Program-made: the position numbers and the translations under genes
In this document: piece after piece, positions 3,149-44,917 of the stretch
Position numbering within the stretch: position 1 is the stretch's first letter
Layout: each line of letters starts with the position of its first letter
Assembly (NCBI GenBank): GCA_051362555.1
Contig: CM120649.1
Location: forward strand, 8,494,001-8,558,000
DNA from: Lingula anatina
Taxonomy: Eukaryota; Animalia; Brachiopoda
Reading direction: 5' to 3'
Length of the DNA stretch: 64,000 nt
Notes under the pieces: generated by a model
Database searches by the model: none
What the model was told of the DNA's origin: nothing
What the model saw: only the letters and a program-made list of their open reading frames with translations

Positions 3149-3899
3149 ATGCCTGAGAGGAAGATAAGTCGTGACAGTCAGAGAAGCAGCAATGGTGGGT
3201 CTGGATTCATTCTGAGCTCCAAGTCCGAGGTGCTGCATTCAGAGCCCCAGGTAATTTATGGTCATGGGCAGCGCCGTGTATCTGGAAGTAGTGGCAGCAG
3301 CGTCCAGCGAGATACAGCCTCCCTGGGCCGTGGTGGTCAGGTGATGTCATCACAGAACATCCACACCACCAGGACAGTCCAGACGTCTGTCAAACACGGA
3401 GATGACCATCATCAGAGGTCAGCCACTCTGCCAGTGACCACTGGGAACCCACGGATACAAGTGTCCAGCTCGTATCACACCCGCTCCAGCCAACCTGAAG
3501 TGGTTGAACCCCCAATAAGACCTCAGACCTCCATGGCCCTCCACACCTCCCCTGAACACAGCCACAAAGTGAAGAAACAGCACAAACATAAGTCGCCGCG
3601 TCACAGTGGAGGCAAGAAACACAGGGCGACCACGCAGCACACGGAGACTATGGAGGAAATCACTTCATCGCGTCAAGGTTCCCTCCCTAGCCTCCATGCT
3701 CATAGACCTAATTCTTATGTTTCAGTTGACACCAGCCGTGCGGGTACTGGACTGACCGAGGTGACTGTCAACTCTGGTGACCATACACTACCCACGTCCA
3801 TGAGACAGATCTCGGACAGTAGGTACGAAGTGGGCTTCACTCCATCAGAGAGCCAGACTCACCAAGCCAAGGTCATGTATAACGGGGAACATGCCCCAG
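3149..3899 (+). CDS. Filamin exon: Ser/His/Thr-rich N-terminal extension (ATG 3149) fused to repeat-coding part 3726-3899
   Basis: Open frame from ATG 3149 to donor CCAG|gtgagt (3899/3900); internal acceptor ctaattcttatgtttcag|TTGAC at 3725/3726. Confidence 0.8.
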
Positions 3900-15374: not shown

Positions 15375-15563
15375 TTGATGCTCTAGAAGCAGGAGCTGGT
15401 AACCTGGAAATCGAGGTCTTCAGTCATCAAGACGGTTCCAGAATTCCCAACTTCATCGAGCAAGAGCCAGACAACAAGTCTCTGTTCAAAGTGTTCTTCA
15501 CCCCGCCTCCCAGGGTGTATAGATATGATGTTGGGGTCAGGTTTAATGAGGAAGAGGTAGAAG
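15375..15563 (+). CDS. Filamin exon (DALEAGAGNLEIEVFS...VRFNEEEVE), 189 nt
   Basis: tttcag|TT ... AAG|gtaggg; 3' end amplified by 77-bp repeat. Confidence 0.9.
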
Positions 15564-16420
15564 GTAGGGGTTCTTCACCCTGCCTCCCAGGGTGTATAGA
15601 TATGATGTTGGGGTCAGGTTTAATGAGGAAGAGGTAGAAGGTAGGGGTTCTTCACCCCGCCTCCCAGGGTGTATAGATATGATGTTGGGGTCAGGTTTAA
15701 TGAGGAAGAGGTAGAAGGTAGGGGTTCTTCACCCTGCCTCCCAGGGTGTATAGATATGATGTTGGGGTCAGGTTTAATGAGGAAGAGGTAGAAGGTAGGG
15801 GTTCTTCACCCTGCCTCCCAGGGTGTATAGATATGATGTTGGGGTCAGGTTTAATGAGGAAGAGGTAGAAGGTAGGGGTTCTTCACCCTGCCTCCCAGGG
15901 TGTATAGATATGATGTTGGGGTCAGGTTTAATGAGGAAGAGGTAGAAGGTAGGGGTTCTTCACCCTGCCTCCCAGGGTGTATAGATATGATGTTGGGGTC
16001 AGGTTTAATGAGGAAGAGGTAGAAGGTAGGGGTTCTTCACCCTGCCTCCCAGGGTGTATAGATATGATGTTGGGGTCAGGTTTAATGAGGAAGAGGTAGA
16101 AGGTAGGGGTTCTTCACCCTGCCTCCCAGGGTGTATAGATATGATGTTGGGGTCAGGTTTAATGAGGAAGAGATAGAAGGTAGGGGTTCTTCACCCCGCC
16201 TCCCAGGGTGTATAGAAATGATGTTGGGGTCAGGTTTAATGAGGAAGAGGTAGAAGGTATGGGTTCTTCACCCTGCCTCCCTAGATGATAGTTTTTTTTT
16301 ACCCTGCCTCTCAGGGTGTATCAACATGATGTTTTGGTCAGGTTTAATAAGAAGGTAGAAGTTCTTCACCCTGCCTCTCAGGGTGTATAGTTATGATGCT
16401 GGGGTCAGGTTTAATGAAGA
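15493..16420 (+). repeat. 77-bp tandem repeat (10 near-identical copies plus degenerate tail) comprising exon 3' end and splice donor
   Basis: Period 77 (15494, 15571, 15648 ... 16187). Confidence 0.95.
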
Positions 16421-18174: not shown

Positions 18175-18312
18175 GTCGCCACCAGACCAAGATCTTCTAT
18201 GCAGACACTGAGGTGAAAGGCAGCCCTTTCTTCTGTGATGCCTATGATGCCACCAAGGTGATACTGGAACAAGTCAGGAATGGGCTGATAGACACACCAG
18301 TACATATGGAAG
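18175..18312 (+). CDS. Filamin exon (GRHQTKIFYADTEVKGSPFFCDAYD...), 138 nt
   Basis: ctctag|GT ... AAG|gtaaat; 3' end amplified by 42-bp repeat. Confidence 0.92.
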
Positions 18313-18601
18313 GTAAATTGTCTATACTGTAGAACACACCAGTACATATGGAAGGTAAATTGTCTATACTGTAGAACACACCAGTACATATGGAAGGTAA
18401 ATTGTCTATACTGTAGAACACACCAGTACATATGGAAGGTAAATTGTCTATACTGTAGAACACACCAGTACATATGGAAGGTAAATTGTCTATACTGTAG
18501 AACACACCAGTACATATGGAAGGTAAATTGTCTATACTGTAGAACACACCAGTACATATGGAAGGTAAATTGTCTATACTGTAAAGCACACCAGTACATA
18601 T
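18292..18601 (+). repeat. 42-bp tandem repeat (7+ copies) comprising exon 3' end and splice donor
   Basis: Donor copies at 18313, 18355 ... 18565. Confidence 0.95.
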
Positions 18602-24196: not shown

Positions 24197-24370
24197 TCAA
24201 GTGGGAGGATGCTGGTAAGGCAGAAGTGACCATCAAGTTGATAGGACCCAGTGGTCAGAGCATCCCATTCACCACCCACAACACACCAGAGGGCACTAAG
24301 GTCAACTATGTCCCCACTGAGTTTGGCACCTACAGGATCCACGTGTTCTATGGGGGGCAGGAGATCTCAG
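24197..24370 (+). CDS. Filamin exon (KWEDAGKAEVTIKL...FYGGQEIS), 174 nt; last exon before the 20-kb variable region
   Basis: tttcag|TC ... CAG|gtaaac. Confidence 0.92.
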
Positions 24371-24902: not shown

Positions 24903-25141
24903 TGTCACTTACTGTAGGATCCATGTCAAGAGATTAAATAGCATGTCAGGATTATGCATTGCGTTCACAGCCATGCCTTCATCAGTTCTTTGTTTCAGCT
25001 TTGTTTCAGCAAACATACAGCAACATAATATATCCATATCATATATTTAAAATTTCAGGAAACTGGATATTGTGCAAAAAATGTTTTATATCCTAGTATC
25101 TTTATCATTGTCTAATCTGTCAATTCCAGCAATTTTATCTA

Positions 25142-28100
25142 CGGTAATGTGCCATGAATTTCGAACAGTAGAAAATAATTAAATTTGGGAAAAGATCGTT
25201 CTGGCCGAAATTCATGAAAAGGAGGTGCTCAGAACTTCCGAAAGTTCGAATTTCATGGAATTCTGTCAATTTTGACCGGAAGTTGTCTGTTCGTCGCTAG
25301 GCCTTCTGTTATCTTCTCCCGACGATCTATTTAGAGTTACCATAATGTATGATTGTGTGAGTGTCGGTAATTGCGACCAAAGGTATACATGTACTTTCAC
25401 CCGATCACTGTGTATGGCCCATAGATAGAGCGGTGCTGTTGTTTAGGGCCGCAAAACAGCATCGTTATCAGTAGTGTCGTTTTTCAAAAGCGATTCTGGC
25501 AGTCAGAAACTAGTGTCGTTTTTCAAAAACGATCCTGGCGCTCAGAACGGGAGTGGACGGAGGGAGAGACGGCCGACGATTAGCGTCTGCCACGGCCAGA
25601 TAACCTTTACTATGGAAGCTTAGTGTTACCGTTGCTCCTTTCCGTGCACTGAAACTGAGACGACAGCCGATCAGTGTCTATGGCGCACGTGCAGGTAGCC
25701 TTCATCTGCGATAAGTGTCTTCCGCGACAAGGTTCGTTGCCTTTACCGTTAAAGTCGGGCGGAGCTTTACGCGCGAATGCGTCCTCATCTCGCCGTTCGC
25801 GGGTCGGTGTCTCCGACGCATACGTAGCCTTCCCTGCAGAAGCCGGCCTCGGCACTACGGCCTCTCCTCCGTGCGGGGAGGCCACTACGACCGCAGATCG
25901 GTATGTGCGGCGCACAGGTAGCCTTCGCCACGGCAGCCGAACTGTGTATTACGGTCTCTCTCCGTCGTGCGCTGCGACCAAGATGACAGCTGATTGTTGT
26001 CTGCGATCAAATATACTAGGTTGGGGGGGGGGGGGGGTGCAGGGCCGTTTTATTTTTATTTATTTATTTTTTTTCGCTCAGGCAACCAGCAGCAGCAACT
26101 GATTTCCTGGCGCATAGTTGCGTCAATGTACGCATTTGAAAAGCGTGTACGTTTTGTCATTGAAACCATCTTCAAACAAACGCGAGAGATAGGTAATCTA
26201 GAGTAAACCGAAAAGGCAGTTTTTATATTCGTTCAAGGGACTGGAAGATCGTCAATAGGAGATAGTGAGCGATCTGAGCGCGACAATAAGCCAATTTCCA
26301 CACTAGTTCAAGGGACTTCGTTACTATATTCGTCAGCAAGAGATTGTCAGCGATCCGAGCAAGCATAGAAGCTCGGACTTTTTGTCCATGCTACATGTAG
26401 AAGGCAATTTTCATGTAGTCCGCAGGATATGGTTTGCTGGTTTGCGACAGGTGCGTAACCAGGCATACGCACGGATACTATAATTTTTTGGCCAACCATG
26501 AAATTATTCTCTTTAAATCTAGTGTACTTTTCAAGGAATATTATCGAAAATCCCCTTCGATTATAAGTTAATGTCACCTGAATGTACAAATTCTCTGTAT
26601 AATTTATATATGCACCATTGTTCTGACACCCTTCTCGTTTGCTTTCACAGAACTGAGGTAAACAATACTAGTTACCATCTGAAGTCCGATCTTAATCGTC
26701 CATCTAGCTGGAACTTGCTTTACCTCTTAATTAGAGGGTAAAGTGCCCTTCAGCTCACAGGTAGCTTTTGTCTTGAGTGTATCGAACGCGATATTTATCT
26801 CAGATAAAAATCTACCTGTGTGTTATTTCAAAGAGCTGCTCCAGCAGACCTGGGGGCACTAGATAAATCTGATCAACGGGCTAAACAAGGAGCCAGAGAA
26901 ACAAAGGAAGATTGATTTTTCCTGCAAAGTTTCAAAGAATTTTGACACGGACTTGATCCAGCTTAACCCTCCAAACTAACGGGGTGGCATGGGCAATTTT
27001 TACAAAATTTACAAACAATTAAACTTAGATATATTACAATTTTATCCTTTAATATAATTTTGGGAAGCATGCACCCGCATGTAAGCTGGGTGATGTCAGT
27101 AAGCCCCTAGTTAAATAAATATACCCTTATGAGCAAGGCTTTTCCCAGCGAACCGTCCAGCCGTCATTTGGACGGCCGCTGACATCACCGGACGGCCTAT
27201 ATTTTCAAAGACGGCTAGACGGCTTGCGACTTTTTTTTGATGACGTCTTGGCTTGTCGGGACAGCCGTGGACGTTGTAAGAAATTTTCTTAGAGTAATTT
27301 GACGTACCTAGCTTTTATGATGCGTCACAGATGAATGGTACTACTTTGAAGTGTACGCTGATATTCAGTCACGACGAAACTACTTCCTAAAGCTTACAAA
27401 ACACAATAAAATGTTTCTATGAACTTTAACTTTAAGATACACATTCCACGCCGTATGCAGCAGTGACAAGAATGACCTTCATGCGGTACAAAACACTAAG
27501 CAAACTACAGGCCAATTTGTGAAAGGGGACACCTTCCGGACCTTCATACGCACGGCAACTGACAAAGCTGATTGACAAAAAGGAAAATTTCAAATTTTCA
27601 GCGAGAGATCGTTCGCAATCCGAGAGAGACCAGGAGGCAATTTTCATATTTGTTAAAGAGGCTTCGTAAGCCAAAGGGCGAGACGAGAACGCAATTATCG
27701 TCAGCGTCGCAATCCGAGTGAAACGAGAAAGCTCATACTCGTTCAGTGGCTTTCGTTTGCGGCATATCGTCAGCCGGAGATCGTTCTCGATTGTTTTTAA
27801 CCCTCCATCCCTCCCCATTGGAATTTATAATTTTTAAAAATATTTTTCATTTCATTTGTACATTTCAAGGGACTTCATTAGCGGAAGATCGTCAGCGGGA
27901 GATCGTGAACAATCTGAGCGAGACAAGAAAGCAATAATGGTAATCTTTATTGCAGCTCTTAACATTGCTCTTTTGTTCTGTTGCTGAAGTCTCTACTGTT
28001 AACAATGCTATTGTGCGCCTCAGCAAAACTACCGATCGCTATCTCACACCGAATATTGCGGTAAAGAAACAACAGCCCGACAGTACAACTCTTAATAGAT

Positions 28101-28417
28101 TCTCCTGTTATCTGAATGAATGGATATGACGATGTTGTTTAGCGTCCTAAACTAACTGTACTGATCGTTATCTTGCACCTTGGGCCGCACACGTAGTACT
28201 CAGGTAAAGGTACGCTAGGGCAACATTGCCGACTGTTAGATCTTTATAAGCGCGAGAATAGCCCGGTGGCCGATTTTAAGGTGTACGAAATTCACGAAAT
28301 GAAGATCGCGCAAAATTGCTTACTGGCCGAAATTCATGGTCCAGAAAAAACTCCAGTCGGCCGATTTTAAGATCGTTCGAAATTCAAGAGCCGTTCGAAA
28401 TTCATGGCACTTTACCG
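25142..28417. mobile_element. 3.3-kb non-autonomous DNA transposon, Tc1/mariner-pogo-like (TA target duplication)
   Basis: TIR cggtaa(t/a)gtgccatgaatttcgaac at both ends (1 mismatch), TA on both flanks, subterminal ggccgaaattcatg repeats, CpG-rich, no transposase ORF. Confidence 0.88.
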
Positions 28418-31397
28418 TAGTTCACTTTTGTGTTAAATGTTGCTAATGGTAGAGGCAGTATTTGTTGGATTTAGTATGTGCTGTTGATTTACAATACATG
28501 TGGAGCTGAATATTCTGGAACACCTCAGCTATATATAAATTATGTCTCCCACATCTCTGGCATGGTTCTACTGTCATCATGTGACTGGACAGTGTTCACT
28601 GGTTCCCAGTACATCCGCACGGTCATTAATGTCACATCTGCTACAGTGACTGTCACTTTAATATATGATGGATTTGAAATAGAACATCTGACATGATAAT
28701 TGGCTTGTCTGAACAATTAAAAAAAAGCATGTTGCCTCTTGGATGATATTCCAGGGAAAAGATTTTGGTTTTAGCCTTTGGGCATATTATTTGTTTATTA
28801 TTTTGACATTATGGGATGATAATTGTCACACCAAGTCGTAAAATAATATATTCAGTGTAATTAGGCATCTCAAGCCTGGTAATAGCTTTAGAAGTTTCCT
28901 CTGTGGATAAAGGTTTGGTCATTCTATAGGTGTCTTTGTGATACAATTTGCCTCTTCACACTCCTGATGTATTTTGCCAAGAAAGGAAGAATCACATCTG
29001 TGTCTGTAACCTTAGTAAAACTTAGTTTATAACAATTTGTTTAGCAATATGGAGATGTGGAAGTTGAAAACATCATGATGATAGTCCTCAAGCTTTTCGT
29101 GACTTATTTTTTTAAAAAAGCATTAATAAGTTACACAACCACAGTATGTTACATAAGAAAAAAATACTTCAGGAAGTCACCCTTAATATCTGATATTTTA
29201 AAACTGCAGCTGGTGAGGTGGTGCCACAAGTCTGGAAAGACAAGCTGGCAGTTCCTGTCTACTTAGATGATAGATATGCTTTGGTATAGTACAAATGGAG
29301 AATTTTTAATCTATAAGATTAAATACAGAACAGGTACCAATTAAGGAATTAATGCCCCCACCCCACCTCTTCCCTTTTGAGAAATGTACATACTGTACTG
29401 TGTCATGAAAGTTGACACTGCTTATATATATCATGTACTACAAATGGGCCAAAACATGCTTATTTAGACTGGCAGCCATTTTTGGGTCAATCAGTGCATT
29501 TTACATTAATTGCAGCCAATACAACTTTAAGCCATAAAATTTTCACAATTCTGGCATCTTAACAGCTTGAAGTCTGGTGTTTTTTCAATATGCAACTTGT
29601 AGGGCAAAGCTAGACAAAGTGCAGAACTGTGGCCATTCTCTCTCTTTTTAACTTAGGGCAACATTATCCTAAGAAAAATCATTTGTTTGCAAATTAGTTA
29701 CTTTTTTATATAATAAACATTAGTATGTTGGTCCTTAAAGTTTGTGTGTAAAGTGAAGCAGGAACAAGATTTTTATATTGAAAATTAGCTCAATTTCCTC
29801 ATTTACTAAACTAGTATCAGCTATGAAATCTCTTGTTGCATTTTTCTATTTACCATCAAAATTATACTGTACATTTATTTAAATCTCCTTTGTTTTGAAA
29901 TTAAAATATTGCATCATATAAGTTAACTATATGAGCTTAATAAGCTCTCTACTAATTACTTTAAACAAAAACATTAATATTGATATTGTGTGCCATAAAA
30001 GTGCTTGTTAGCAATTAGCAGGCTATAAGTAGATTATTTAATGATTATACTGGGCATGAATTCAACAAGTTCTCAATTATTGCTTCACTTTCACAAAATA
30101 AATTGTAAATCATCCTTGTTAATTGTCACCAACTGACTACTCAAATTTCTGTTACTGTGTCACCCAACATGACACCCTTTGGTAAGTTTTGTAAAATACA
30201 GTAATTTAACAGTGTAATTATCATAATTATAACTGCCGTAATTGGATAACAAAAATACTTAGTACAACAGCTATGCCCCTTGTTAACATAATATCAAGCG
30301 TTTATGTTGACGCTATGAAACTTGATATATCTAGGTCACATGAATATTGTAATGATTTTTAATTATTGAGCATGAGGGTGAGAAAGAGTTTGTATCATAT
30401 TCTGTGTTATAGCATTTAGCAGCACAGATTTAAAGTACACTAATTTCTGCCCCTGCAGTTAAAGGCTGAGTTACAATTTTGATCAAGAATGCTGTGAACA
30501 GTCAAGTTTAATATGATAATTATTTCTTTATTGCTGGACATCACAGACTTTAAGCACAGACTGTTGTCATGGCAACGGCACCATCTGTGGCCGGCACAGC
30601 CTCTGTGTCACAGTGTTCATTGCAGCACATGTGGTGTAGCTAGAGCTCAACCTACCCCTCCCAGCACAGATATGCACAGAATGTAGCTGGAGAAAAATAG
30701 CTAAGATGTTTCCTAGGACTCTGAGCTATGATAGAAAATTATCTCATTTTCTATCAGATATGTTATTGTTTAGATATAGAAGTGGTACGCCATGACAAGA
30801 GATATGGAAGTGTCTTAGCCATTTGGTCACCTGTCACAGCTATGATCTCCAACAGCACATATGACACTGATTGTCTTCCGTATTGACATACTTGATGCTT
30901 GTAAGGATTTCTGCTGGTATATTGAGCAAGGATTATACTTCATATTTCATATAATACTACACAAATAGCAAGCAGCTTGTTGGAAGCCAAGTCTCTTATA
31001 TAAGACATATATGAATGTGTCATAATACATTAAGAGAATCTAATATAGTATTACAGATGTGACATTTGTAAATGTAGTCATTTCAAGCGCACGGGACTCT
31101 CACTGGAACTTGATTCACTCTATGTCTGTGTGTAGTGAGGTTGATGGCCAAAAACCTGAACTAGTAACTCCGTTATGGAGGGATTACTTGGCAGTGTGTG
31201 ACAGGCCTTGGAACAAGACATCATAATCCTTGTCTTCTGCTTACCTTGGACAAGACGTACATTTTCTAAAAACTTACATCAGGAAATGAAAAGTATTCAG
31301 ATTCTCAGTGATAAGCTGATTTTGGTAGAATTGAACACAGTTGACTTTACTGCTTGGCTGCCATTGATTAAGGTAAACTCCAAGTGAGTAACGGATA

Positions 31398-34300
31398 ATG
31401 AGTTCTTTAAGTGCCACTGAACAATGTAGCTTCTTGAATGAACTGAAGGCGGCACTCAAACACAAGACAGACCAAGAGACGGAGAATGACAATAAATTTG
31501 AAAGAGATTCTGATGGAAAGGAATGCAATGGAGAGGATGAAGGGAAAAGTAAAGAAAAGACCAGTGAAAATAGTGTAGACGCATGTAGCTCTGTATTGAA
31601 AGTCAAAGATGCTGTTCAAAATGCAGAACGGATTTTAAGTGCACATAGGCCTATATACCAAAAACGTCCAACTTCCAAAACTATTTACCAGTCGTATAAA
31701 AATGGTAGTCACACATCCAATGACAGCAAAGCAGCAGATAATTCTTCCAGCCATTATAACACTAGGATTCTGTCTCCAGCCAAATCCGTGATTCATCTCT
31801 GTCAAATTGGAAGTTCTAATGACAGTGATGTGGAGTTTCAGAACCTTGATGTCAAACATTCTAACACCGTGCCACGCACTGAAGCTAAGACCAAAGGATA
31901 CATGACCCCCAGCACTCTGTGGCAAAAAGAGGGGGGTGGCTTGTTTGAGGAGCTGAACAGTGTGCTGAAGCATAGGCAGGAACACTCACGAGATATTTAC
32001 AACAAACTGGAGGACTTGGAGAAGGTGAAGTCAGGGAAAACACTGACGTTCATAGGCGGGGCAGAGGTGGTTTATAGCACTCCCCATACTTCACCAGAGA
32101 CTAAAGCAAAATCCACAGAGAAGATGAGTATTCATTATCACTGCTCTAAAATACCCTCATCTCCTGGTAATGGTGGCCTGAGGAGTAAAATTGAAAACTT
32201 CAATAAAGAACCACCTAAAATTGTAATTTATGACATTGGTGATATAGACAAAAAGGGTAATAATGAGAAAAATTCTAATCAAACAGAAAACACCGATTGT
32301 GTTCTCAAAGGTCAAAAGTCTGTGCAGCAGCTGCAGAAGGCTATTGAAAACAAAATTGGATTCCTGCCAAAAACACCAGCACAGGTGGGTCCAGCTTATC
32401 GTAAAAAGGCAGATTTCATACCTAAAGTCAAGAATGGTTCAGCAAATGGTGTAATCCATAATGAGGCTGCCAATTCTTCATATGGGATAAGAAATTCTGT
32501 GCCTGAAGCAGAGAAATCATATCATAAATATCAAAATGGTACCGAAAAACCTTCTATGCATGTAGTTAACGGTGGTGAAGTGAGGAATCTGAAAACTATT
32601 CAAGACAGGCCACCCAGTCCACATTCTGGGACATTGCTGTCCCAGCTGGTAGACTCTGTGAGACTCCAGGTGGCAGACCTTGACTCAAGCCTGTCTCGGG
32701 AGACAACAGGGGATGTGTGGAAAAATAATGTAGAAACTGGAAGCATATCCAGCGAAGTTTCATCTGAACTGAGTTCCAATTCCACCATCACAGAGCTCCC
32801 AAACCTCAAGGAGGCTAGAACAGCTTCTAACAGCTTGCTTCCTGTGGTGTCTGATTCCGAGGGTTCCAAAATAAGTGAGACCAGGACCAAGCTTCATTTA
32901 CGCCCTGATGAGGAGTCTCTGACGTCTGTCACCCCCTGTGAAGCCTCACCTGTCCTGACACCTAAAACAGTGCCACTGCCACCAGTGTCATTCAAGGACG
33001 AGATCCGCAGGAAAATTGACCTTTGTCTGAAGTCTGCCCCACACCTAGAGGGGATGTCCACACTGGAGGGACACCAGGCTCTGGAACACCAGGCTCAGCA
33101 GGCAGGGCACACTGGGGAACTGAAGAGTCCAAGCTTTAAACCTTCCATCTATGTGCCATTGCTTCCAATGCAGCAAGATCACAACAAGGTAATGCTGCAT
33201 CATCCTGCTGAGGACCACACAACCCCTACAGTGACCCCCCAACTACATCCACCCCCTCCAGGGAGGCAGGGGAACAGTCAGGAAACTGGCTCTGAAAACC
33301 TGCAACAAAGTCCACAATGGCAACCATCGCAGGGACTGCTTGCTCCATCACAGCCACCACATGAAGATCATGTTGATTCACAAATACTCCAAGATTCTAA
33401 GGACAATTCCTCATCATTATCACTCAGTTCCAGTTCCACTCAGTCTGCCAAGGCTCAGTCTGCCTCCGCTCAGGGGCTGCTGGTACAGGAACTTCAGGAA
33501 CAGTTAAGGCACATGCATAAAGGTGGAAGCAAAGAAGATGACAAAACTACAAAGGTACTTACGGAGACAGAATCCACTACATCCAATTCTGAGGTAGAAT
33601 TCCCAGAAGGTTACATGACTTATCCATTACCAAACACATCTAAGCAAAAGTCTATGTCAGACCGAAACGCATTACAGAATCTTTTGGTCACTCACTCTGG
33701 GGAGAGAATACCATTAGATGGCACTGAAAACAGCTTCATTGCAGGTCAGCAGTCGCACCATGGTCCTTTCAGTCGTGCAAGTCCAGGCCACTGCACTGTG
33801 CCATCTCCCACCTCTTTCCATAAGAACTATCACCACATGAATAGCTTCATGAACCAGCTACAGCAGAAACTGGAACAGAACAGGGTTGGGAAGTCACTGG
33901 AATCTCTCAGCAAGAAAAAAGGGAAGAAATTTGATTTTAAGCGTGATCGTTCCTTAAGCTGTGACAATCTAGTAGATCAGGAGAATGAAGCCAACTTTGC
34001 TCTCCCCAATGTAGATTATGATCCTTCCGGTGGAGAACGAAAGCTTCAGAAGAGTGCCATTTCCATGGAGTATATTAACAGACAAGACTCCGATATAGGT
34101 CCTCTTAACCAACCTCATAAACAGATGCTGCAAGAGAAGCCTAGCTTATATAATACGTGGACTGCCCTCCCAGGTAAAAAGGCACGTGCTAAAAATAAAG
34201 CCAAACTGAAGCGCTTAGAAATGCGTCGCACTCTTGAGGACAGTGATTCATCAGGGACACCGTTGTTTGAGGGGGCAAAGCTCAGTGTAAAGAATGATGA

Positions 34301-34734
34301 GACGTATCTGGACACGCCATTCAAGAGGGAAATCCGTTCCCGTGCACGTTCCAGTGGACGAAGCTGTAGGGAGATGGTTAAGCCTCAGTATCGTTGCAGC
34401 ATGAACCGAAGTTCCATGCGTACCATTGGAGGCAATGAAAGCATCCACAGCGCCCACTGCATGTTTCTTAATGACCCTGTGGAACACAGTTCTGATGGCG
34501 ACACAGAGAGCTTGTTCCAAGAGATAGGGCAGTTTGAACAGCAGGTTATAAACTATGTGAAACAAGGGGACTTAACACAGTCTAATGACTCCATTCGTAG
34601 TCGTTACCAGCAGCAGATGGACCCATCCCATATCTCAGTCAGGACAGGGGGACTGTTCCGCAACCTGGCCTGCTGTCTCCTCTGTGACACCTACAGCTCC
34701 TCACTGGCCAGCAGGAGATTGAGGAGAAGACGAG
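31398..34734 (+). CDS. Large low-complexity coding exon (~1,112 aa), probable alternative first exon of the filamin gene; ORF runs to 34796 if unspliced
   Basis: 1,132-codon uninterrupted ORF in AT-rich intron, same strand; in-frame stop just upstream of ATG; phase-1 donor CGA G|gtgggg at 34734, same donor hexamer as bona fide exon 47902. Confidence 0.75.
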
Positions 34735-35134
34735 GTGGGGCTTACATTTATCTCTATATATTGGAGGCCATTCCCCTCTCTCATTGTACATATTGATACA
34801 TTGTAACACAGTGATTTCCCACATTTCATGCTGTTCCACTTCAAACCAACTGCCACACCCATACCACTCGGTATGCAGGCATTGTGCCTGTCAGCAATAT
34901 GCTGAAAGATTAAACAGTTTGTTTTATCTTTTTCACTCACAACCTTTATCACAATTCCCAGATGTATAGGGATCATATTTTTGAAACCAACATATAAGTA
35001 TTGCTTTGTCATAAAACGGATTGCTGCATGTTAAAATTAACTAACTTATACATTTAGTATCTGAATTAGGTTTATATTTTATTTACATGGGTGTTGATGC
35101 TGTGTAGAGTGAAATGTTGATTTGTTTGCTGTAG

Positions 35135-35191
35135 GTTATGACATCAGTAATGAATATGATAACCAGCTTCACTTCTACACCACCATAACAG
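35135..35191 (+). CDS. Tyr-rich micro-exon 1 (GYDISNEYDNQLHFYTTIT), 57 nt
   Basis: ctgtag|GT ... CAG|gtactt, phase 1-1, open. Confidence 0.65.
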
Positions 35192-36199
35192 GTACTTGTA
35201 CTTGTAGTATATATTGTGGGGTTGTGGCTGTGGAATCATGGTGGACCAATTCACACACAGTGGGGCGTGTTGTGTCAGTTTAATTTATTTTCACTATATG
35301 CTGGAAGCAGAGAGTGGGGATATAATTGATGGGGAAGGTTGAAAGATATTTTGGCAGCTTTTGGTGGTTCGGTTAATGGCTCCATCATTGTTTGTGTGTG
35401 CTTCAGTTGAGTCATTTTGGGGAATGTAGCTATCAACTTCTAAAAAAGGTTGTTTCACACATATTTTTATGATTTTCTCTTTTTTGTGTGGAAAAGAAAG
35501 TTTTGAAATTATTGTTATATTTTGTATGAAGTGTTCAAACCCTGGGAATTAAAGAGTAAAGGATAGGTATTTTGGTTTATTCCCATTTATGCAAGTGTAT
35601 GTTGTGGACATTTGCCTTTTATCAGCACTGTGTTTGATCTGCTTGTTCGTCTGCAGTAGGTCACTATATGTTAAGTACTTTGGTTTAAGTCTCAAATTTT
35701 GTTTCATATCCAAGTAAAATGTTGCTTACTCATGAAAGATTGACAGATAGAAGCAATCAGTTGGGCAGACTAACAGACAGTCAAACAGACAGACGGACAA
35801 ACGGGTGAGAGAGAAGTGTGTGTGGGTGTGAGTAAATGTTGCAATTTTAGGTATTTGTTATTGCCTTTGAAATCCAGTAAATATGCATTTCTTTTTATGT
35901 TAGGCTGAATTAAAATAAAAAGGTGAATTACTTCTCTGACTTATCAGCCATCAGTGGTGTTTCACCCATGACAGTGGTCTGATGGTTTCCTGGTTGGTTG
36001 TTCATTTAAATATTCTAATACTCTGTACTGACAGATATGAGCAATGCTGGGTACAGATATGTTGTTATAACGTAAAATATTTCATTTTTATGACAATTTA
36101 TCGTATTTTATGAGGATTTGTACACAAATGGAGGAATTATCAGCCATTCTCTTATATTCTAGCATCATAAACACATTCCCATGTTTCTCCCTTCCTTAG

Positions 36200-36292
36200 G
36201 TTCCCCATTCTTACAAGAGGCGGATGGTGCCGGCATGAAAGTCTATGATGACATGTACAACATGTACGGCAGCCATTATGGCAGTACCAGAG
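36200..36292 (+). CDS. Tyr-rich micro-exon 2 (GSPFLQEADGAGMKVYDDMYNMYGSHYGSTR), 93 nt
   Basis: ccttag|GT ... GAG|gtagta; begins with filamin GSPF motif. Confidence 0.8.
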
Positions 36293-37371
36293 GTAGTACA
36301 CTTGGATGGGATATTTCTGCTTGTATTTTTTAATAATAATAATATGTCCTCCCCTGCCCTTCCTTATATTTCTCTGTTCTTGGTGTCCTACTTACGAACA
36401 GGTTTGCATTACCATCTGCTTGAATTATGCTGCGATGGCCAATGGAGCTGATGGTTTCTTCAGATGTTGGCAAATTTTTTGAGCTTTTAAGATGAAGGAT
36501 TTAAAACACTGTCACTTTAGAGTCAGCCAGGGTTATTATGTGCAGGAAGCAGAATTTATAAAGCTTTCAAAGCCTGGGAACCCTGTCCTTGCTTTCAAGT
36601 TCCAGAACCTACTTTACCTTGCTTATATCCAGTATGAGGCAGCTCCTGAGTTGTTCATGGGTATCATGGATTGTGCATTTTTATAGTCAAGCAATCCTAT
36701 AATGTTGCCATTTTCTCATTGATCTTTAAAATGTTTTGATATCTGTCCCCTTGTTAGCATTATTTCCATTGCCTTGCATTTCCTCCTGATCTGTTGGATT
36801 AGTTTTGTCTAACAAGTCTTTCCTTTGATGTTCCATTCAATTGGTTCATGTTTTTCAGCTTGCTCTTTCTCCCATATTCCCATTTGTATGTTTTAGATTT
36901 CATTCATTTTATAATACTACAAAAATTCAGCTTATTGCATTACAAGCCATCAAAATTACATGTTCATAAAGGAATGGGATTAAAGGTAGAGCCCATATGT
37001 GTTTCCCTTTACCACCAGGTGGCAGCATTGGTGCATGTGTTCCTGCTTCCAGTTGGAGAAATATGCCCTTTTGCAATACTTGGTTTTGATGTGTGCTTAT
37101 AATTATGTGTATTCATTTCTTCCTTTTCAGCCATGGTTTAAAGGCATTGATTCAAAAATAATTTGGTGAATTATATCCACATTGCAAAATGTTTGACATA
37201 GTTATATTATTTATTGGTGAAAATTATATCATTATTGGTAAATTTTTTTATTCGCCTTTGTATATTGCTTGCATTTCTATTACTTGTTTGCATGTACTTT
37301 GTAATTATAAATTCAGTTAATTAAGACTGCATGATTAATTATCCTCTCCCCAATTCCTCCCATTTGTTTAG

Positions 37372-37452
37372 GGTCACCTTTCATACAAGAAGTACGCGAG
37401 CAGCCCTTGTATGCCACAGTGCAACGCCAAACTATAGAAACACAGAGGTCAG
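37372..37452 (+). CDS. Tyr-motif micro-exon 3 (GSPFIQEVREQPLYATVQRQTIETQRS), 81 nt
   Basis: gtttag|GG ... CAG|gtaagg; GSPF start. Confidence 0.82.
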
Positions 37453-38485
37453 GTAAGGTCAAGGTCAAGCCTCAGTATCATATGGAGGCAACTCAGACCA
37501 GCCAGTTCGTGATGTTCATGTTTTTTCTATTTTTATTCTGACTTTCAGCTCTGCTGTATCGCTGGTGTAAGATGCCTTTCTTAACGCTTCCCATGGTGTA
37601 CTACTGCTTTTGCTGAGTGCTGTTCTAACCCAGATCTTTACTCTGAACACTCTCATATGATGTATTCATATGTATGTGATGTCATATACTTTTTTTTATT
37701 TAGACATCTTTGACTAATCTGTTGATTTCTTGAATATGTTTGCAGTGTGAATTCTTAATAACTTATGTGTCACTGAAGTTATTCAGATAAAACAGGGTTG
37801 CAGACTTCTCCCTTTCAATAATTCAATTACAAGAACAGCATTGTCAGATGAAGATGTTTTTACATTTTCCTTCATTGCATTCTTGCACGTCACAAAGATG
37901 TCGCACATGCAAGAACATGAAAATCCCTAAAACATTGGACAGCTTTTTGTGTCACTTGGATTTAGCAAACCATGTGTGCTAACATTGTAACATAATATGA
38001 GGCAGTAAGGCTCTCTGCACAGCAAGCAGTATACATGTTACATTTATAAAATGTACCAGCTAACATATAAGTAACCCACAAGAGATTTTCATCACTTTCA
38101 CAGATTTAGACAAAAGTTCAAGTTACTCTTTCACATAGTAACCAATTTATAAAGTGGTCAATCTCTCAAATAAGTGTAGTGTTATTAACTGAATTGCCAA
38201 GGTGTGCATGTACTGCTTACTGTGAAGAGGGCCTCACAAAATAGGTACTACTACATGTAACATCTCCCAACATTCCACTAACATGAAATCCCACTCTCAA
38301 TACAATGTGTAGATTAGACCTATCTTCAGTATTAATCTATTGATGCTGATGATGGGACTGTTACAGCATGCAATATGGCTGTTCAGTGCATTGCCTGTAT
38401 TTTATACAGACTAACCTATCATCTTACTAACTGACTCTTTTGCCATTAAACAAGACTTCATATTTATGTGGGGAAAGCTTTCTAA

Positions 38486-38536
<51 letters not shown>

Positions 38537-38920
38537 TTGTAAAACATTTAGCATTGTCTGCACTGTAGTAATAAATATTGGATAAATTACTGTAGTATCA
38601 TTAATTTATTGAATTTTTGAAAACTCTTTCACTAAGTTAGATTCATTAATTTAGAATATTTCAAACTTTGATTGATTGTGGTATTAACTAGTATGTGACA
38701 TTATACAGACATTAGGACTAAATATATTTATATATAATAGCATGTTCTCTCCTTGTATGCCAGCATCACATGGAGAAGATATTGAACAAGTAACAGCCTC
38801 CTTCATGTATATACTGGTAGTTAATTGTTAATATTTCCATTTCAGTCTGAATTTTGTACAGGGATATCTGTATTCATTTTTAAGTTGTCTCTTTTGTGTT
38901 TATCCCATTTCTATGAGTAG

Positions 38921-39016
38921 TGCCACAGGTTGAGGACATTTATTCCACAGTGCGTCCAACACACGAAGGCATTTATGCCACTTCCAGACCCAGTGTTGAA
39001 GAGCCAGGGGGACAAG
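38921..39016 (+). CDS. Tyr-motif micro-exon 4 (VPQVEDIYSTVRPTHEGIYATSRPSVEEPGGQ), 96 nt
   Basis: pyrimidine tract..gagtag|TG ... AAG|gtagtc, phase 1-1. Confidence 0.72.
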
Positions 39017-39808
39017 GTAGTCAGGGTCTCCAGAGAAACCCCGGGGAATTACCCTGCATGATGTGTTGAGCATGACCCCCAAGGTTTGACACGGAACAGA
39101 ATTGTTTGCTTCTTGGTTTTAATAAATGTCAAAGCAAATGAATAACCACCAAGGTTTGCAGATAAACATTTCTGAACAAGATTTGCTGTAAGCATCTGTA
39201 TTTCACGTCAGTATGGTAGTGGATTTTGTAGGATGGTCTTGCATGAAGTGGAAAACCAGTAGAAAATGAAACTATTTAAAATTATACAACCATAATGTCC
39301 CTTCTATCTATGTCTCCCTTTTTGGGCATGTGGATATGTAGTCCTGGAGGTCAAAGAAATAGGCCACAGTGGTATAAGATAGGGCCCTTCCTCCCCAACC
39401 CCAGTGCTTTTAGACTTTTATATTATCCTAAATCAGAAATATGTCATAAAATGGCTAGGCCATAGCTTACCTATACTACAGCTTTTTGTAATTACAGACA
39501 TCAAAAACCCTTTCCCATCTTTATTATAACAAAATGTTTTCATATCATTTTGTTGTGTGAAATATTAGAACTAAATTCTTCATTTGTTAATTCATATCCA
39601 TGTAATCAACAGCAATTCAATTCATACATAAAAAAAAAACATCACATTTTCACAAATGTGGACATAACTCTATGGTATTGCACTAGCTGTGACAGCTGTC
39701 ACATTCTGCAGCAATTTGTCTCATTTTGGGAACATTATTTTATGGCATTGTGCTAGTTGTGACAGCTGTCACATCCTGCTGCAATGTGCCCCACTGTCTA
39801 TTCTCCAG

Positions 39809-39856
39809 GCAGGCGACAGTCCATGTACTCCACCAACAGGGAGAGTGTGTATGGAG
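39809..39856 (+). CDS. Tyr-motif micro-exon 5 (GRRQSMYSTNRESVYG), 48 nt
   Basis: ctccag|GC ... GAG|gtaggc. Confidence 0.75.
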
Positions 39857-40263
39857 GTAGGCACTGCAACCACATTCTCAGAACCATTTCCGTTGTATAA
39901 TACCTTATAAACTTCCAGTAGTCTCTCTTTACTCAGCTAGATGAAACCAGTCCTTTTTGTTTTTGTTGTTTAAATAATTGATGCCCAATGTGTATTTTGA
40001 GTGTGTTTCATTGATAGCTCAAGTGCCTTATTGTGATGATGACAAAATGCATATAATGATCCCTTTTGTAAAAAGTTGCTGTTTTGGTGTTATTCTGAGA
40101 ATACTCGATGATAATGAATTCTATACTTTGACAGCATGTAGCTCAGGTTGATTTGATAACAAAGTGAATATAAACATTGATAATTTGATGACAAGGCAAT
40201 GTAGACCAGAAGCAGTCTGTAGCTAGATATGAGCTGATTGTTTAAGTTATTTCTAACCTCCAG

Positions 40264-40332
40264 GAGGGACAATAGTAAGAAGAACAAACATGTCTGTGTC
40301 TGGAGAGAACCAATTATATGGACACAGGCCTG
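40264..40332 (+). CDS. Tyr-motif micro-exon 6 (GGTIVRRTNMSVSGENQLYGHRP), 69 nt
   Basis: ctaacctccag|GA ... CTG|gtaaga. Confidence 0.7.
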
Positions 40333-40626
40333 GTAAGATGGTAGTGTGTGCATGTGCGTCTGTGGTGTCTTTGATTGTGTGACTGTGTTTGATGTATGTA
40401 TGTGTGTGTGGCTGTGCATGTATGTGTATCTGTGTATATGCGTGCACATGTCTGCGCATGCATACGTGTGTGCACGTTCCAAATATTACATGCAGAGATA
40501 GATGAAATGTTATAAAATAGATAGTAGGTATTCTCACACAAACCTTCCTTTATGTTAATTAAGTTAAAATTTTATGATTCTCAAATTACCCGTATTGAAG
40601 TCTACAGAGTATAGTTTCATGCTCAG

Positions 40627-40689
40627 GTATCCAGGCAGTGAAAGCATCCACTAACAGCACACTTTATACAGAAGGGATTTATGGAGAAG
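40627..40689 (+). CDS. Tyr-motif micro-exon 7 (GIQAVKASTNSTLYTEGIYGE), 63 nt
   Basis: gctcag|GT ... AAG|gtgaga. Confidence 0.7.
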
Positions 40690-41243
40690 GTGAGAAGGGA
40701 TTCTGGCTTCTTTCAATGGTCTATCCTTAAAATAAACGTTCTGGTTATCCAAGTTTTAGCCAAAAGTGCCAAAACTTTTGTTATCAAAAGTACTTTAATA
40801 TACAGTACCAAAGGAATTTACACTGTTTAACTTGAACTTGCGGAAGTTATCTACAGACCAAAAATGAGACTGATAATTACTTTTATTTCCCAGATTAGTT
40901 ACATCTGAAGTCATTTAGCTCTAACATTTTTGCAGCCTTTGTATCTTGTAGTTTACTTTGTTATACTGTATTAGCTGTCATCAAACAGTTCTGATTTCAC
41001 TGTGGATCTTTATAAATATTTTGCAGCATCAGCTGTATATAACTTATTATTTAATAACTTAAATCTAAATGCCTGGAGTGTCAGTAAGAATGGGTTCATT
41101 AATTTAAAAGATATTTGATAAACTGTTAATTTGGGATGTCACATCCAAACTTTCATTGCTGCCTCCTGAACCTAAAAGTAAATATTTAGTGATATTCAGT
41201 GACAGCATGCCCCTATTCTAATAACTGCTGATTGTTCCGTCAG

Positions 41244-41300
41244 GTCAGAGACAGCAGAGACATCTGGTGACCAGGGTATACGGGGATGGTATCTATGAAG
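41244..41300 (+). CDS. Tyr-motif micro-exon 8 (GQRQQRHLVTRVYGDGIYE), 57 nt
   Basis: cgtcag|GT ... AAG|gtagca; YGDGIYEG mirrors AYGDGLYKG of exon 44157. Confidence 0.75.
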
Positions 41301-41620
41301 GTAGCAGATGTTATTGACAAAGACACTTAAGAACACACAGTTAGAAATATTCATAATTATAATGTGAATCTCAGGACATAGTTTGATACACATATTGATA
41401 AAGAAATTTTAACTCAAAGTTTTTTAGCACACAAAATTACACAAACAAGTAAATAGCTTTTATGCTTTCAGAACAAAATGGATTCAATAATTCTATCTAT
41501 AATCAGACAAAACAATACCAAAATTATGTATAACAAAAAAATACTGCAGTGTATGGGTAAGTATTGAGACATGTATGGGGTCATTTGATATGTTAATTGC
41601 CTATGTGTGACCTATGGCAG

Positions 41621-41686
41621 GTAAACAGGGCCAGCGTCAGGACTACGGGACCATATCACGGAATGTCACTGAAAACATCTACGAAG
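41621..41686 (+). CDS. Tyr-motif micro-exon 9 (GKQGQRQDYGTISRNVTENIYE), 66 nt
   Basis: tggcag|GT ... AAG|gtattc. Confidence 0.72.
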
Positions 41687-42562
41687 GTATTCTCTCTCTA
41701 CGAATAGTTACCTGCAACAGTAATGTTTCCATCTATATACCTATACTAAGCATGTTTATGGTATATAGATCTGCTTTCAGCTCCTAGCAGATCTTCATGC
41801 ATATATACAGTTTATAAAGTTCCAGTGGAATTCTGCATGGTTATTCAGCTTGGTTGACAATATCTGTTGTTGCTAAGTATCATATATCCAAACTGTCCAA
41901 ACTCTAAATTAAAGACCTCATTTTAGTAAAAGCCTTATGAGAAAATGTCACCCATCTTCGAGAGAGATCCATGTGCTTTCCCTGTATAGCACCTCCCCTC
42001 CCCCAATTCCTGATCTAACACTACCAAAGTACCCAAATGTATTCAAAGTACCCATCACAAAGAAACAATTAGAAATACTTTCACTTTCCATGTCTTTAGG
42101 CTCGTTCAGTTCTTTCTCCAGAAGCTGAATGAGTGCTTGCACCATTTTAGTGGCCACCATGGCAATGTTCCAGTTAGTATGCATGTCAATTCAATATATT
42201 GCCAATACCACATTCCGTTAGCTGGTATATAGATTCCATATTTATGTACTCCTGATAAGTGTCATTTATTGCCAACTTCCAAATATTCCCTCTTCTGTCA
42301 CAATCAGACAAATTGGGATGTTAGTCTAACGCATGCTCCACCCTGTATTATAATGAGACATAAATGCTGTGGCACATTACGAGCACTCTTATTATTAGAC
42401 CTGTTGACGTAGTAATGGACAGTTTGATTCCTTAGTTTTTAGAAACAGTAATTTAAATGTTGTCTTTATATAATACTATTATGTTTATGAACATTGATGC
42501 ATTAGAAGTTGTATGGGAGATGACAGTGATGGTGTGTTATTATGATGTGTGTCTTCATTTAG

Positions 42563-42625
42563 ATTCTCCACTCAGACTAGAGTTCAGAAGGTTGTCTTAT
42601 ATATATGGCAATGGGATTTATGGAG
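42563..42625 (+). CDS. Tyr-motif micro-exon 10 (DSPLRLEFRRLSYIYGNGIYG), 63 nt
   Basis: atttag|AT ... GAG|gtaatc; inside ORF 42457-42792. Confidence 0.75.
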
Positions 42626-42948
42626 GTAATCACACTAGTCTAATTACAAATATGCTGTCAGTGATTTATAGTTTAACTGCCACTGAGAATACAGCACACA
42701 AAGTGCAAACACAGTCAGCAATGTACTACTGTATTAGGGAAATCCTGAACCAAAAATTATCAAGTACACATTATATAACCCTCTGTCTTTGACACATCTG
42801 GAACAATGAATAATACTTTTATTACGCACAAACTTGGAAGATCCTCAACATTTCCGTAGTTTTTACACAACTCGCGCAGATTCTATTCTGTGTTCTTGTT
42901 CTGTTCACTATATGAATAAGCTATAACAATAAGCTACTTCGCCCTTAG

Positions 42949-43017
42949 GACTTCCTCCAAGAGAAGAGAGTATATACAGCACAACACGCCGTACCAGTTA
43001 TAGTTCACAATATGGAG
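42949..43017 (+). CDS. Tyr-motif micro-exon 11 (GLPPREESIYSTTRRTSYSSQYG), 69 nt
   Basis: ccttag|GA ... GAG|gtaagg. Confidence 0.78.
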
Positions 43018-44020
43018 GTAAGGAAATGCCCATCTCCAGCCCTGCTGTCAACCCCTGACCTCCTGGCAAACATTTACATAATTCAGGTTTGGGAGTTCAT
43101 CCCCCCTTGTATGTCCTAGTCCACACCCAGTCATCTCCTGAATCTGAACATATATAGAAACAGTTAAACTACAACAAACAATCCCAAATAGATTACTGTT
43201 CTTCCAAATGAATAGCGTACTGCCATATATGCATGTTTACTAGTGAAGTTAATTAAACTGTATGTAAGGGTATGGTGGTCTCTAGAAATTATGCAATCTA
43301 CAATTCATACCAGTAAGTTAATCTCCCTTCCAAACCCTGTAGCCTTTTCTTGATCATTCTTTTTGAAAGGAGATTTTTTTATACTGGTTTGCAAGCATGG
43401 ATATTCAACCCATAGTATCTAGTTGAGAAGTATGGATAAAGTTTCCATCCCAGTTTGTGTTGAATTTTTTTGTAACATGAACAGCGATAGCTTTGAACTT
43501 TTTCCTCCGACACCTACTATATTGTTTGCATGATTTAAAAGGTTTTTATATGGAAGGCTTGCTATTATTTATATTGTCAGAACTGTCAAACTCAGTCTTG
43601 CATAATATAAACTTAAGCATTAACAGTAACAAAGCGAGTTAGTTTGTGAAAAGTGTTATTGTCAGGAGAGCGTTGTTGTTGGTCCACACCAGGTGTGCGC
43701 AGTGAAGTATTGTTTTAACTTGAAAATTAATTCTGATACCTTTATTCTAGGTGATTGAAAAAAAATTATAGCTTTAGTTCCCATTGTGGCAGTTAAAGAC
43801 ACATGCAAAGATTTTGCTGATATTATGGTCTACTACCAATCTTCACATACATATTGATTTCTTTAGGGAATTTTTACTTCCAGAAACCGCATTGGTCTTC
43901 TTTTATAATTACATGTTTATTTGAACATACTTTCAGGTCAGATTTTGCTTTTCATTATTTTCAGGAATTTTAAATGTGTTATCTATAAAATTTTATATTT
44001 ATTTCCTTGGTTTCTTTTAG

Positions 44021-44029
44021 GAAATCAAG
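44021..44029 (+). CDS. Candidate 9-nt micro-exon (G-N-Q)
   Basis: long pyrimidine tract tttcttttag|GAAATCAAG|gtaacg, phase 1-1. Confidence 0.4.
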
Positions 44030-44156
44030 GTAACGTATGTACAATTCTGGTTGGTAATAAGAAATATGAAAAGAAAGTGTTTTCTATGTTTCTTACAACT
44101 AAAGGCATGTTAAACCTGCTAGATCATGTGTCAGCCATGTCATTTTCTCTTGGCAG

Positions 44157-44426
44157 GTTCTCCCTACACACAAGATGTCCGCAGCATCGCCCATATCAGC
44201 GCGTATGGTGACGGACTGTACAAGGGCGAGGAGGACCAACCCGCGACCTTTATGGTGGACTCCAAGGGCATGAAGGGAGATCTGTTTGTGCAGGTGGATG
44301 GTCCCAACTCCATCGCCAAGTGTAACATCGACCCAGAGAGAGACGGGCTGTATGCTGTCACCTATGTTCCCGTGGAGGTGGGCATGTATAACATTCAAGT
44401 GAAGTGGAACGGGATGGAGATACCAG
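44157..44426 (+). CDS. Filamin exon (GSPYTQDVRSIAHISAYGDGLYKG...WNGMEIP), 270 nt
   Basis: tggcag|GT ... CAG|gtaacc. Confidence 0.93.
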
Positions 44427-44917
44427 GTAACCCATGCTCAAACACCCATACCATCTCTACATCATGTCCGTAGCAAGTTCTGTGGAGTTTAATATTGATT
44501 CATAGATCGAAACAGAAAATGTATTATACCAGCTGTGTGAAATGTTGTAGAATTCTAGATAATGCAAGTATTGCAATAAGAGTGAATGCTACAGATTGAG
44601 CAATAGAGACTCAACAGAGACAACAGTTTTCTCAGAAAATATCAGTCTCTATCATTGTTACTTAATCTTTATGATATTTAATCCTTAGCATGTACTGTTT
44701 AAGCCATGCACCTTTACATGTACATCACATATCCTTGAAGTTTGTTTATTATGAAATTCTAATCCCTGAAAAAGGCACCAATGCCGAAGCTTGGGCATTT
44801 ATACCAAATTTTAGTTAATCTTTATAGATGTTTTTTGCTCGATTCATTTATTTCTTAGACTGAACATATCAAATGACTTAAACTAATGTTAATCCATTCA
44901 TGTTGTTGTCTTTGCAG

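Follow-up and report, generated by a model that had tools for sequence, protein, structure and literature searches.

How did one intron of a filamin gene come to hold a series of small exons that resemble the beginning of the next constitutive exon, and what might these exons add to the protein? The question is raised by a 64,000-nucleotide (nt) stretch of the Lingula anatina genome (the window; contig CM120649.1, positions 8,494,001 to 8,558,000), on whose own coordinates all features are given here, exons being named by their first position. Exon 44157–44426 is 100% identical to the corresponding part of the L. anatina protein annotated as 'filamin-C' (XP_023932625.1, equal to our entry P0001), which establishes the identity of the gene, and P0001 is a filamin-repeat protein with 18 Filamin/ABP280 stretches (PF00630) in Pfam. 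The array-bearing intron, bounded by the donor at 24370 and the acceptor of exon 44157, is placed just 5' of the GSP segment that opens the last (G) strand of a repeat. In the explanation that we favor, with a probability of roughly 0.58, the array consists of in-frame cassette exons seeded by partial copying of the start of exon 44157; exon 37372 is the predicted strand supplier, and the remaining exons would lie in a disordered hinge as likely phosphotyrosine docking sites of Src/Abl type.

The array comprises 11 exons of 48–96 nt spanning 35135–43017, which were recognized by a splice-site scan and from database models. All 11 are frame-preserving, symmetric-phase cassettes (open, of 3n length, phase 1-1), properties that partly served as criteria for their selection. 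The six peptides quoted in the first-pass annotation were all recovered where it had placed them, in AG...GT exons of 3n length and phase 1-1. Its term 'micro-exons' had to be given up: microexons measure up to 27 nt, or up to 51 nt in wider use, and one of the 11 exons falls within the latter limit, so that these are small cassette exons. Eight of the 11 occur in database models (including six of the eight exons from 38921 onward), while 35135, 38921 and 42949 occur in none. Four further scan candidates (40018, 41249, 43937 and 44021), with neither motif nor model, were excluded.

Each exon was aligned with the first 25 amino acids (aa) of exon 44157 and compared with 20,000 shuffles (Bonferroni threshold for 11 tests, 0.0045). 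Three exons passed, namely 42563 (score 42, p 0.00005), 41244 (score 41, p 0.0001) and 37372 (score 35, p 0.00015), while 40627 (score 29, p 0.007) and 36200 (score 28, p 0.036) were borderline and fell short of the threshold. Among 549 intronic or intergenic pseudo-exons used as a control, none scored 35 or more and one scored at least 28. When 18 junction segments of the same protein were compared, that of exon 44157 was the best match for 37372, 40627, 41244 and 42563. Further links were provided by (i) the match of 36200 to a 13-row ortholog profile (p 0.0025, the floor of 400 shuffles), (ii) the pair 36200–37372 (p 0.0005, also a floor value), and (iii) the pairs 41621–41244, 42949–37372, 42949–38921 and 42949–39809 (p 0.0005–0.002); 35135 and 40264 had no pairwise link under 0.02. 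The array thus shows the detectable homology among neighboring exons that characterizes tandem duplicated exons, in 3 of 11 exons after correction and through the additional pairwise links. On this sequence evidence, partial duplication of the 44157 start is very probably the origin of 37372, 41244 and 42563, and 36200 and 40627 probably descend from the same 5' end; for the array as a whole such an origin is somewhat favored. The duplicate origin that the first-pass annotation had proposed for the exons in general therefore appears sound for three of them and likely for five, with an indirect case for another four; direct descent of six exons was not borne out, most of these being linked pairwise to matched exons or to each other.

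The near-intact copy, exon 42563, is collinear with the first 23 codons of exon 44157 apart from a 2-codon gap, and over the 21 aligned codons (p 0.00005) identities at codon positions 1, 2 and 3 amount to 12/21, 17/21 and 7/21, a pattern that reads as that of an old duplicate kept at the protein level. Likeness at the DNA level is weak (codon-shuffle p 0.0014 for 37372, 0.015 for 42563 and 0.054 for 36200), and the copies are therefore judged to be old. The comparison with shuffled controls suggested by the first-pass annotation succeeded for peptides in the three exons named above; for nucleotides the codon shuffle was not significant in 8 of the 11 exons. No long direct repeat family joining the exons was found. 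A recent DNA-level duplication of the array exons was rejected on the grounds of the weak DNA likeness, the lack of long direct repeats and the codon-position pattern. As regards the direction of copying, the junction segment of mollusc orthologs matches the start of exon 44157 in length, which marks this exon as the intact parent; its HISAYG aligns with the start of a human filamin A domain.

After position 44225, at YKGE, exon 44157 contains a near-donor (TAC AAG G|GC GAG), which one synonymous change would convert into the phase-1 donor G|GT GAG. Exons 41244, 42563, 41621, 39809 and 42949 end at the parent's Tyr-x-Gly register, and 40627 ends one residue later. We propose that the acceptor and about 23 codons of 44157 were copied upstream and that one synonymous base gave the copy a phase-1 GT donor; such copies would be skippable without a frameshift. 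The copies would then have been re-duplicated and have diverged, the 5'-most ones retaining GSPF.QE and the later ones retaining and multiplying the tyrosine motif. Of the ten exons counted from 36200 onward, the GSPF exons 36200 and 37372 lie farthest 5' (chance 1 in 45, hand count); exon 35135, if real, would precede both. That partial exon duplication does occur in this gene follows from two recent tandem arrays, at 15493–16281 (+; 77 nt x 10.2, 98%) and 18292–18601 (+; 42 nt x 7.4, 99%), in each of which the repeated unit is a coding exon's 3' end together with the donor.

RNA reads were placed on 38540–44440 only, in four of nine runs (6–25% of each); the donor at 24370, the long open reading frame (ORF) described below, and exons 35135 and 36200 lie outside this coverage. 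In run X7, 41 reads on exon 44157 continue beyond its 5' boundary into a consensus (agreement 0.98) that equals the 3' end of exon 37372 with one synonymous change. The resulting junction, 37452 to 44157, is the only one listed into exon 44157 (one informative run, X7). Exon 37372 is a real and dominant exon in the X7 sample, and exons 38921–43017 are mostly skipped in it. The joining of 37372 to 44157, the third step of the proposed scheme, together with the skipping of 38921–43017, was thus seen in one run, and inclusion of the latter exons appears only in database models. Up to 19 sites in exon 44157 differ between X7 and the window, 18 of them synonymous, and the X7 sample is therefore assigned to a divergent stock. 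Run X4 gave four reads on exon 44157; runs X1 and X3 gave none there, and 12 and 4 unspliced reads within the array, too few to interpret. These unspliced reads, probably sense-strand, lie at 39131–39918 and 42480–43267 and correspond to pre-mRNA or to a short transcript end. In the same region, 39657–39793 holds a 67-nt direct repeat pair, and reads from another locus match 39747–39786 with loose ends on both sides, which marks it as a short interspersed repeat.

The G-strand hand-over was modeled with AlphaFold for residues 1107–1316 of P0001, using an alignment of 11 ortholog rows that ends short of the G strand and hence supports neither of the candidates for it. In the model, FIQEVR of exon 37372 (residues 86–91) forms the last strand of the upstream repeat, in a block with a predicted local distance difference test score (pLDDT) of 91, and residues 95–132, including GSPYTQDVR of exon 44157, are disordered (pLDDT under 50). 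Residues 1–93 superimpose on filamin A repeat 10 (Z 15.4, root-mean-square deviation 1.6, 93/97 aligned), and Foldseek agrees. Scored against the ortholog profile, the first nine residues of 36200, 37372 and 44157 are nearly equal (26.0, 28.2 and 25.8, respectively), and those of 42563 reach 5.7, from which we conclude that 42563 has lost the G strand. The model makes a hand-over of the strand to 37372 fairly likely: with this exon included, both repeats would be folded and the old strand would become a spare linker. Both full-length database models place a GSPF exon directly after 24370, as had been anticipated (P0001, 24370-37372-44157; P0022, 24370-36200-37372-44157). The earlier proposal that a GSPF exon supplies the last strand of the upstream repeat is accordingly upheld for 37372 in the model, whereas its extension to regulated swapping found no support in the one informative run, with its single junction into 44157. 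Nor do the exons behave as mutually exclusive homologous exons, one copy per transcript, since reads join 37372 to 44157 and the models P0022, P0023 and P0043 chain several copies.

A Src/Abl-type tyrosine motif appears to be the strongest trait shared by the array. Tyrosine content is 9.8% in the array vs. 3.3% in P0001; the pattern [IVL]Y[GEAS] was found 12 times in the 11 exons (1.3 expected) and [ED]x[IVL]Y seven times (0.45 expected). Restricting the count of [IVL]Y[GEAS] to the eight database-model exons gave 9 (0.9 expected), and adding the four rejected candidates gave 12 (1.4 expected). In the six frames of the window, 7 of the 17 matches to [ED]x[IVL]Y[GEAS] fall in array exons, and one more in exon 44157. 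The array thus presents consensus tyrosine motifs in predicted disordered sequence, as a Src/Abl docking array would; in a model of P0023 its five array exons are disordered (pLDDT 24–33), and residues 1–120, including the orphan strand, are under 50. The segments EGIYGEG, EGIYA, QPLYA, ENIYE, ESIYS and EDIYS fit the acidic-x-aliphatic-Tyr-small pattern of Src and Abl sites, represented by the Src-optimal peptide AEEEIYGEF (PMC4300553) and by EPLYA/EGLYA of p140Cap, which are Abl substrates binding Csk (PMC3561454). Compared with these substrates, the likeness is one of motif alone, and the Lingula sites come one or two per cassette exon. Hypothetically, splicing would determine how many tyrosine sites precede the five C-terminal repeats, both in full-length isoforms and in those from an internal promoter. 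Comparison with the database haplotype revealed differences at 2/180 residues in array exons, 5/897 in constitutive exons and 4/55 in the intron read-through tail of the model LOC106166721; the low divergence of the array exons relative to the tail (Fisher p 0.028) favors real exons and marks the tail as intron. Of 30 acceptor coordinates drawn up for constitutive exons, 18 were correct, and the analysis used these.

Table 1. Constitutive, cassette and candidate exons in and around the array-bearing intron (window coordinates)
Position	Strand	Feature	Evidence
24197..24370	+	constitutive exon; most of the upstream filamin repeat, stops before the last (G) strand; phase-1 donor	sequence, tblastn of P0022, model
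31398..34796	+	1132-aa ORF, likely alternative first exon of a short isoform; weak phase-1 site at 34734	ORF, motif order
35135..35191	+	tentative cassette exon GYDISNEY...; no likeness to 44157; outside database models	splice scan
36200..36292	+	cassette exon GSPFLQE...; G-strand-like start, 4 Tyr	database model P0022; ortholog-profile p 0.0025
37372..37452	+	cassette exon GSPFIQEVREQPLYATV...; predicted G-strand supplier, spliced to 44157	41 junction reads; P0001, P0022; p 0.00015; model
38921..39016	+	candidate cassette exon with EDIYS and EGIYA; outside database models	splice scan, motif scan
39809..39856	+	cassette exon ...ESVYG	P0023, P0043
40264..40332	+	cassette exon ...ENQLYGHRP	P0023, P0043
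40627..40689	+	cassette exon ...LYTEGIYGE; borderline likeness to 44157	p 0.007; P0023, P0043
41244..41300	+	cassette exon ...VYGDGIYE; likely copy of the AYGDGLYKG segment	p 0.0001; P0023, P0043
41621..41686	+	cassette exon ...ENIYE; resembles 41244	pairwise p 0.002; P0023, P0043
42563..42625	+	cassette exon DSPLRLEFRRLSYIYGNGIYG; collinear with the 44157 start, G-strand part decayed	alignment, profile; P0043
42949..43017	+	candidate cassette exon with ESIYS; resembles 37372, 38921 and 39809; outside database models	splice scan, pairwise, motif scan
44157..44426	+	constitutive parent exon; ancestral G strand, linker and next repeat	100% to XP_023932625.1, mollusc orthologs, reads

Two shorter database models contain the exons that lack GSPF. 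P0023 has the chain 39809-40264-40627-41244-41621-44157, and P0043 (RefSeq LOC106166721, 185 aa), which is annotated as a separate gene, has the same five array exons followed by 42563 read into the intron; in both, the non-GSPF exons sit in short transcripts without the upstream repeat. The start codon of P0023 and P0043 lies within the pyrimidine tract of an ordinary acceptor (16/20 pyrimidines), and because of this and of its tail, a faster-evolving intron read-through, LOC106166721 (39809–42790, +) is probably a fragment of filamin isoforms.

The composition of these models suggests another division of roles, in which 36200 and 37372 serve full-length filamin, and the exons from 38921 onward, of shared origin, form the disordered N-terminus of short isoforms made from an internal promoter. 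P0023 and P0043 hold only exons from 39809 on, and P0001 and P0022 only GSPF exons; the mollusc-like proteins P0082 and P0084 splice a disordered N-terminus at the same junction; and internal starts and short isoforms have been described for fln-2 (PMC3143143) and jbug (10.1101/2020.10.13.337626), respectively. The 1132-aa ORF in the same intron had no Pfam match, no homologue at E<=1 among proteins of 622–1981 aa and no significant BLAST match to mollusc N-termini, and it carries two ELxxxLxx[RK] motifs whose order agrees with that in the N-termini of P0082 and P0020 (motif p-values post hoc), a shared feature that again fits this division; the ORF is likely the equivalent of mollusc-like alternative first exons. 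The array reads of X1 and X3, unspliced and accompanied by none on exon 44157, point the same way. Since, however, the position of the P0023/P0043 start codon suggests 5'-truncated models, and every array exon is phase-compatible with 37372, we regard this division as doubtful; it is largely compatible with our explanation and is its main rival for function. A different use of the GSPF exons, in which tissues pick 36200, 37372 or 44157 as the G strand and so adjust how stable the upstream repeat is or how it binds, would accord with the three near-equal profile scores and with the different first GSPF exon in P0022 and P0001. It is rendered unlikely by the sole listed junction into 44157, which comes from 37372, so that the strand of 44157 itself was rarely used directly in that sample; the tissue range behind this judgment is four runs, one of them informative.

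Were the exons from 38921 onward instead a small independent nested gene (LOC106166721), or rarely used relics, their likeness to 44157 would reflect Tyr/Gly convergence or neutral decay. RefSeq does assign six of them to a gene of their own (185 aa), the runs showed no spliced reads for the exons from 38921 onward, and DNA likeness is weak. The older model P0023 nevertheless joins five of them to 44157, 42563 is collinear with 44157 over 21 codons (p 0.00005), all of the exons are open, of 3n length and phase 1-1, and the LOC106166721 tail diverges faster than they do; we thus hold a nested gene or relics to be improbable. Partial copying followed by strand hand-over remains the preferred explanation, and several observations weigh against it: (i) 6 of the 11 exons show no likeness to 44157 in the peptide shuffles (p 0.12–0.96), and among the 18 junction segments 36200 matches others better than that of 44157; (ii) no joint involving 38921–43017 is listed in the four runs, only one of which has useful depth, and the exon preceding 37372 is not visible in the reads; (iii) the model's choice of the nearer strand may reflect proximity alone, and the second repeat was modeled without alignment support; (iv) the motif patterns were picked after the exons had been seen, and the phosphotyrosine function, for which we see even odds, is a prediction; and (v) array relatives outside Lingula were not found, the one hit among 39 candidates of a short-protein search being the Lingula model itself.

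The gene is presumably jitterbug/FLN-2-like. Members of this subfamily group with Drosophila Jbug and Caenorhabditis elegans FLN-2 and have three CH domains; the Pfam scan of P0001 gave no CH match, and mollusc relatives list PF00307. Junction spacing was normal in 47 of 58 non-Lingula rows (>=75 bits), many of which are isoforms of a few genes; three rows were too short and eight missed the pattern. By eye, three of these eight are normal, in P0082, P0084 and P0020 a disordered N-terminus replaces the upstream repeat, and P0125 and P0181 have a disordered insert; a duplicated G strand was seen in none of the eight. P0125 and P0181 are distant relatives whose insert aligns at the same junction without a second GSP, and that of P0125 includes ALYAA. 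The array junction may be a recurrent hinge.

Jitterbug/FLN-2 filamins resemble the Lingula gene in being divergent, with many isoforms, internal starts and long intervening sequences (PMC3143143; 10.1101/2020.10.13.337626), and fln-2 has five usually skipped exons near its 3' end (PMC3143143); an array of partial exon-start duplicates is not described for fln-2 or jbug in the available text of these two papers. The insertion in domain 20 of filamin C is comparable in being possibly disordered, 82 residues long and located in the distal rod, but it sits within the domain, whereas the Lingula insert follows a duplicated G strand, is exon-modular and is rich in tyrosine motifs (PMC6530996). Alternative exons are known to arise by tandem exon duplication, and in tandem duplicated exon substitution, as in the array, structured residues are retained and disordered ones are lost faster; that study expects disordered duplicates to be undetectable (PMC9741552). 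Unlike the exons treated there, the Lingula copies reproduce only the parent's 5' end, have this parent intact and still included downstream of them, span a domain boundary, and add rather than substitute, P0022 having two copies and the parent. What sets the array apart is additive partial copies that bear a domain-closing strand and a motif-ready turn. No published description of this exon array was found by title or abstract start.

In a broader and more tentative reading, exon-start copying would have passed the closing β-strand to a new exon, created a place in the rod where inserts do not disturb the fold, and converted the structural YGDGLY turn of the next domain into an array of Src/Abl sites from which splicing can select. 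The exon chosen first would then decide which of the three strands completes the repeat, and also whether the tyrosine array is located in the linker between the domains or forms a loop from the last hairpin. The outcome would be a phosphotyrosine scaffold tuned by splicing and possibly exposed by force, with motifs directly traceable to the sequence of a folded domain. Point mutation is the usual assumption for how short linear motifs in disordered regions originate, and their origin is seldom traceable. Here one intron holds the parent, a near-intact copy (42563), half-kept copies (37372 and 41244) and decayed relatives, along with a one-base route to a new donor. The locus also illustrates how a protein with introns placed 5' of a domain's last strand can acquire inserts and keep its fold, and, if the sites are phosphorylated, it would provide a compact test case for the birth of a signaling motif from a structural one.

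Two further observations concern the surroundings of the array. The ORF at 3149–3901 (+) encodes a disordered N-terminus with QVIYGHG and ends in a partial filamin repeat (Pfam, residues 189–251); it is absent from P0001 and is probably another alternative first exon. The segment at about 25140–28420 is GC-richer and by eye has inverted ends of ~30 nt, like a non-autonomous DNA transposon.

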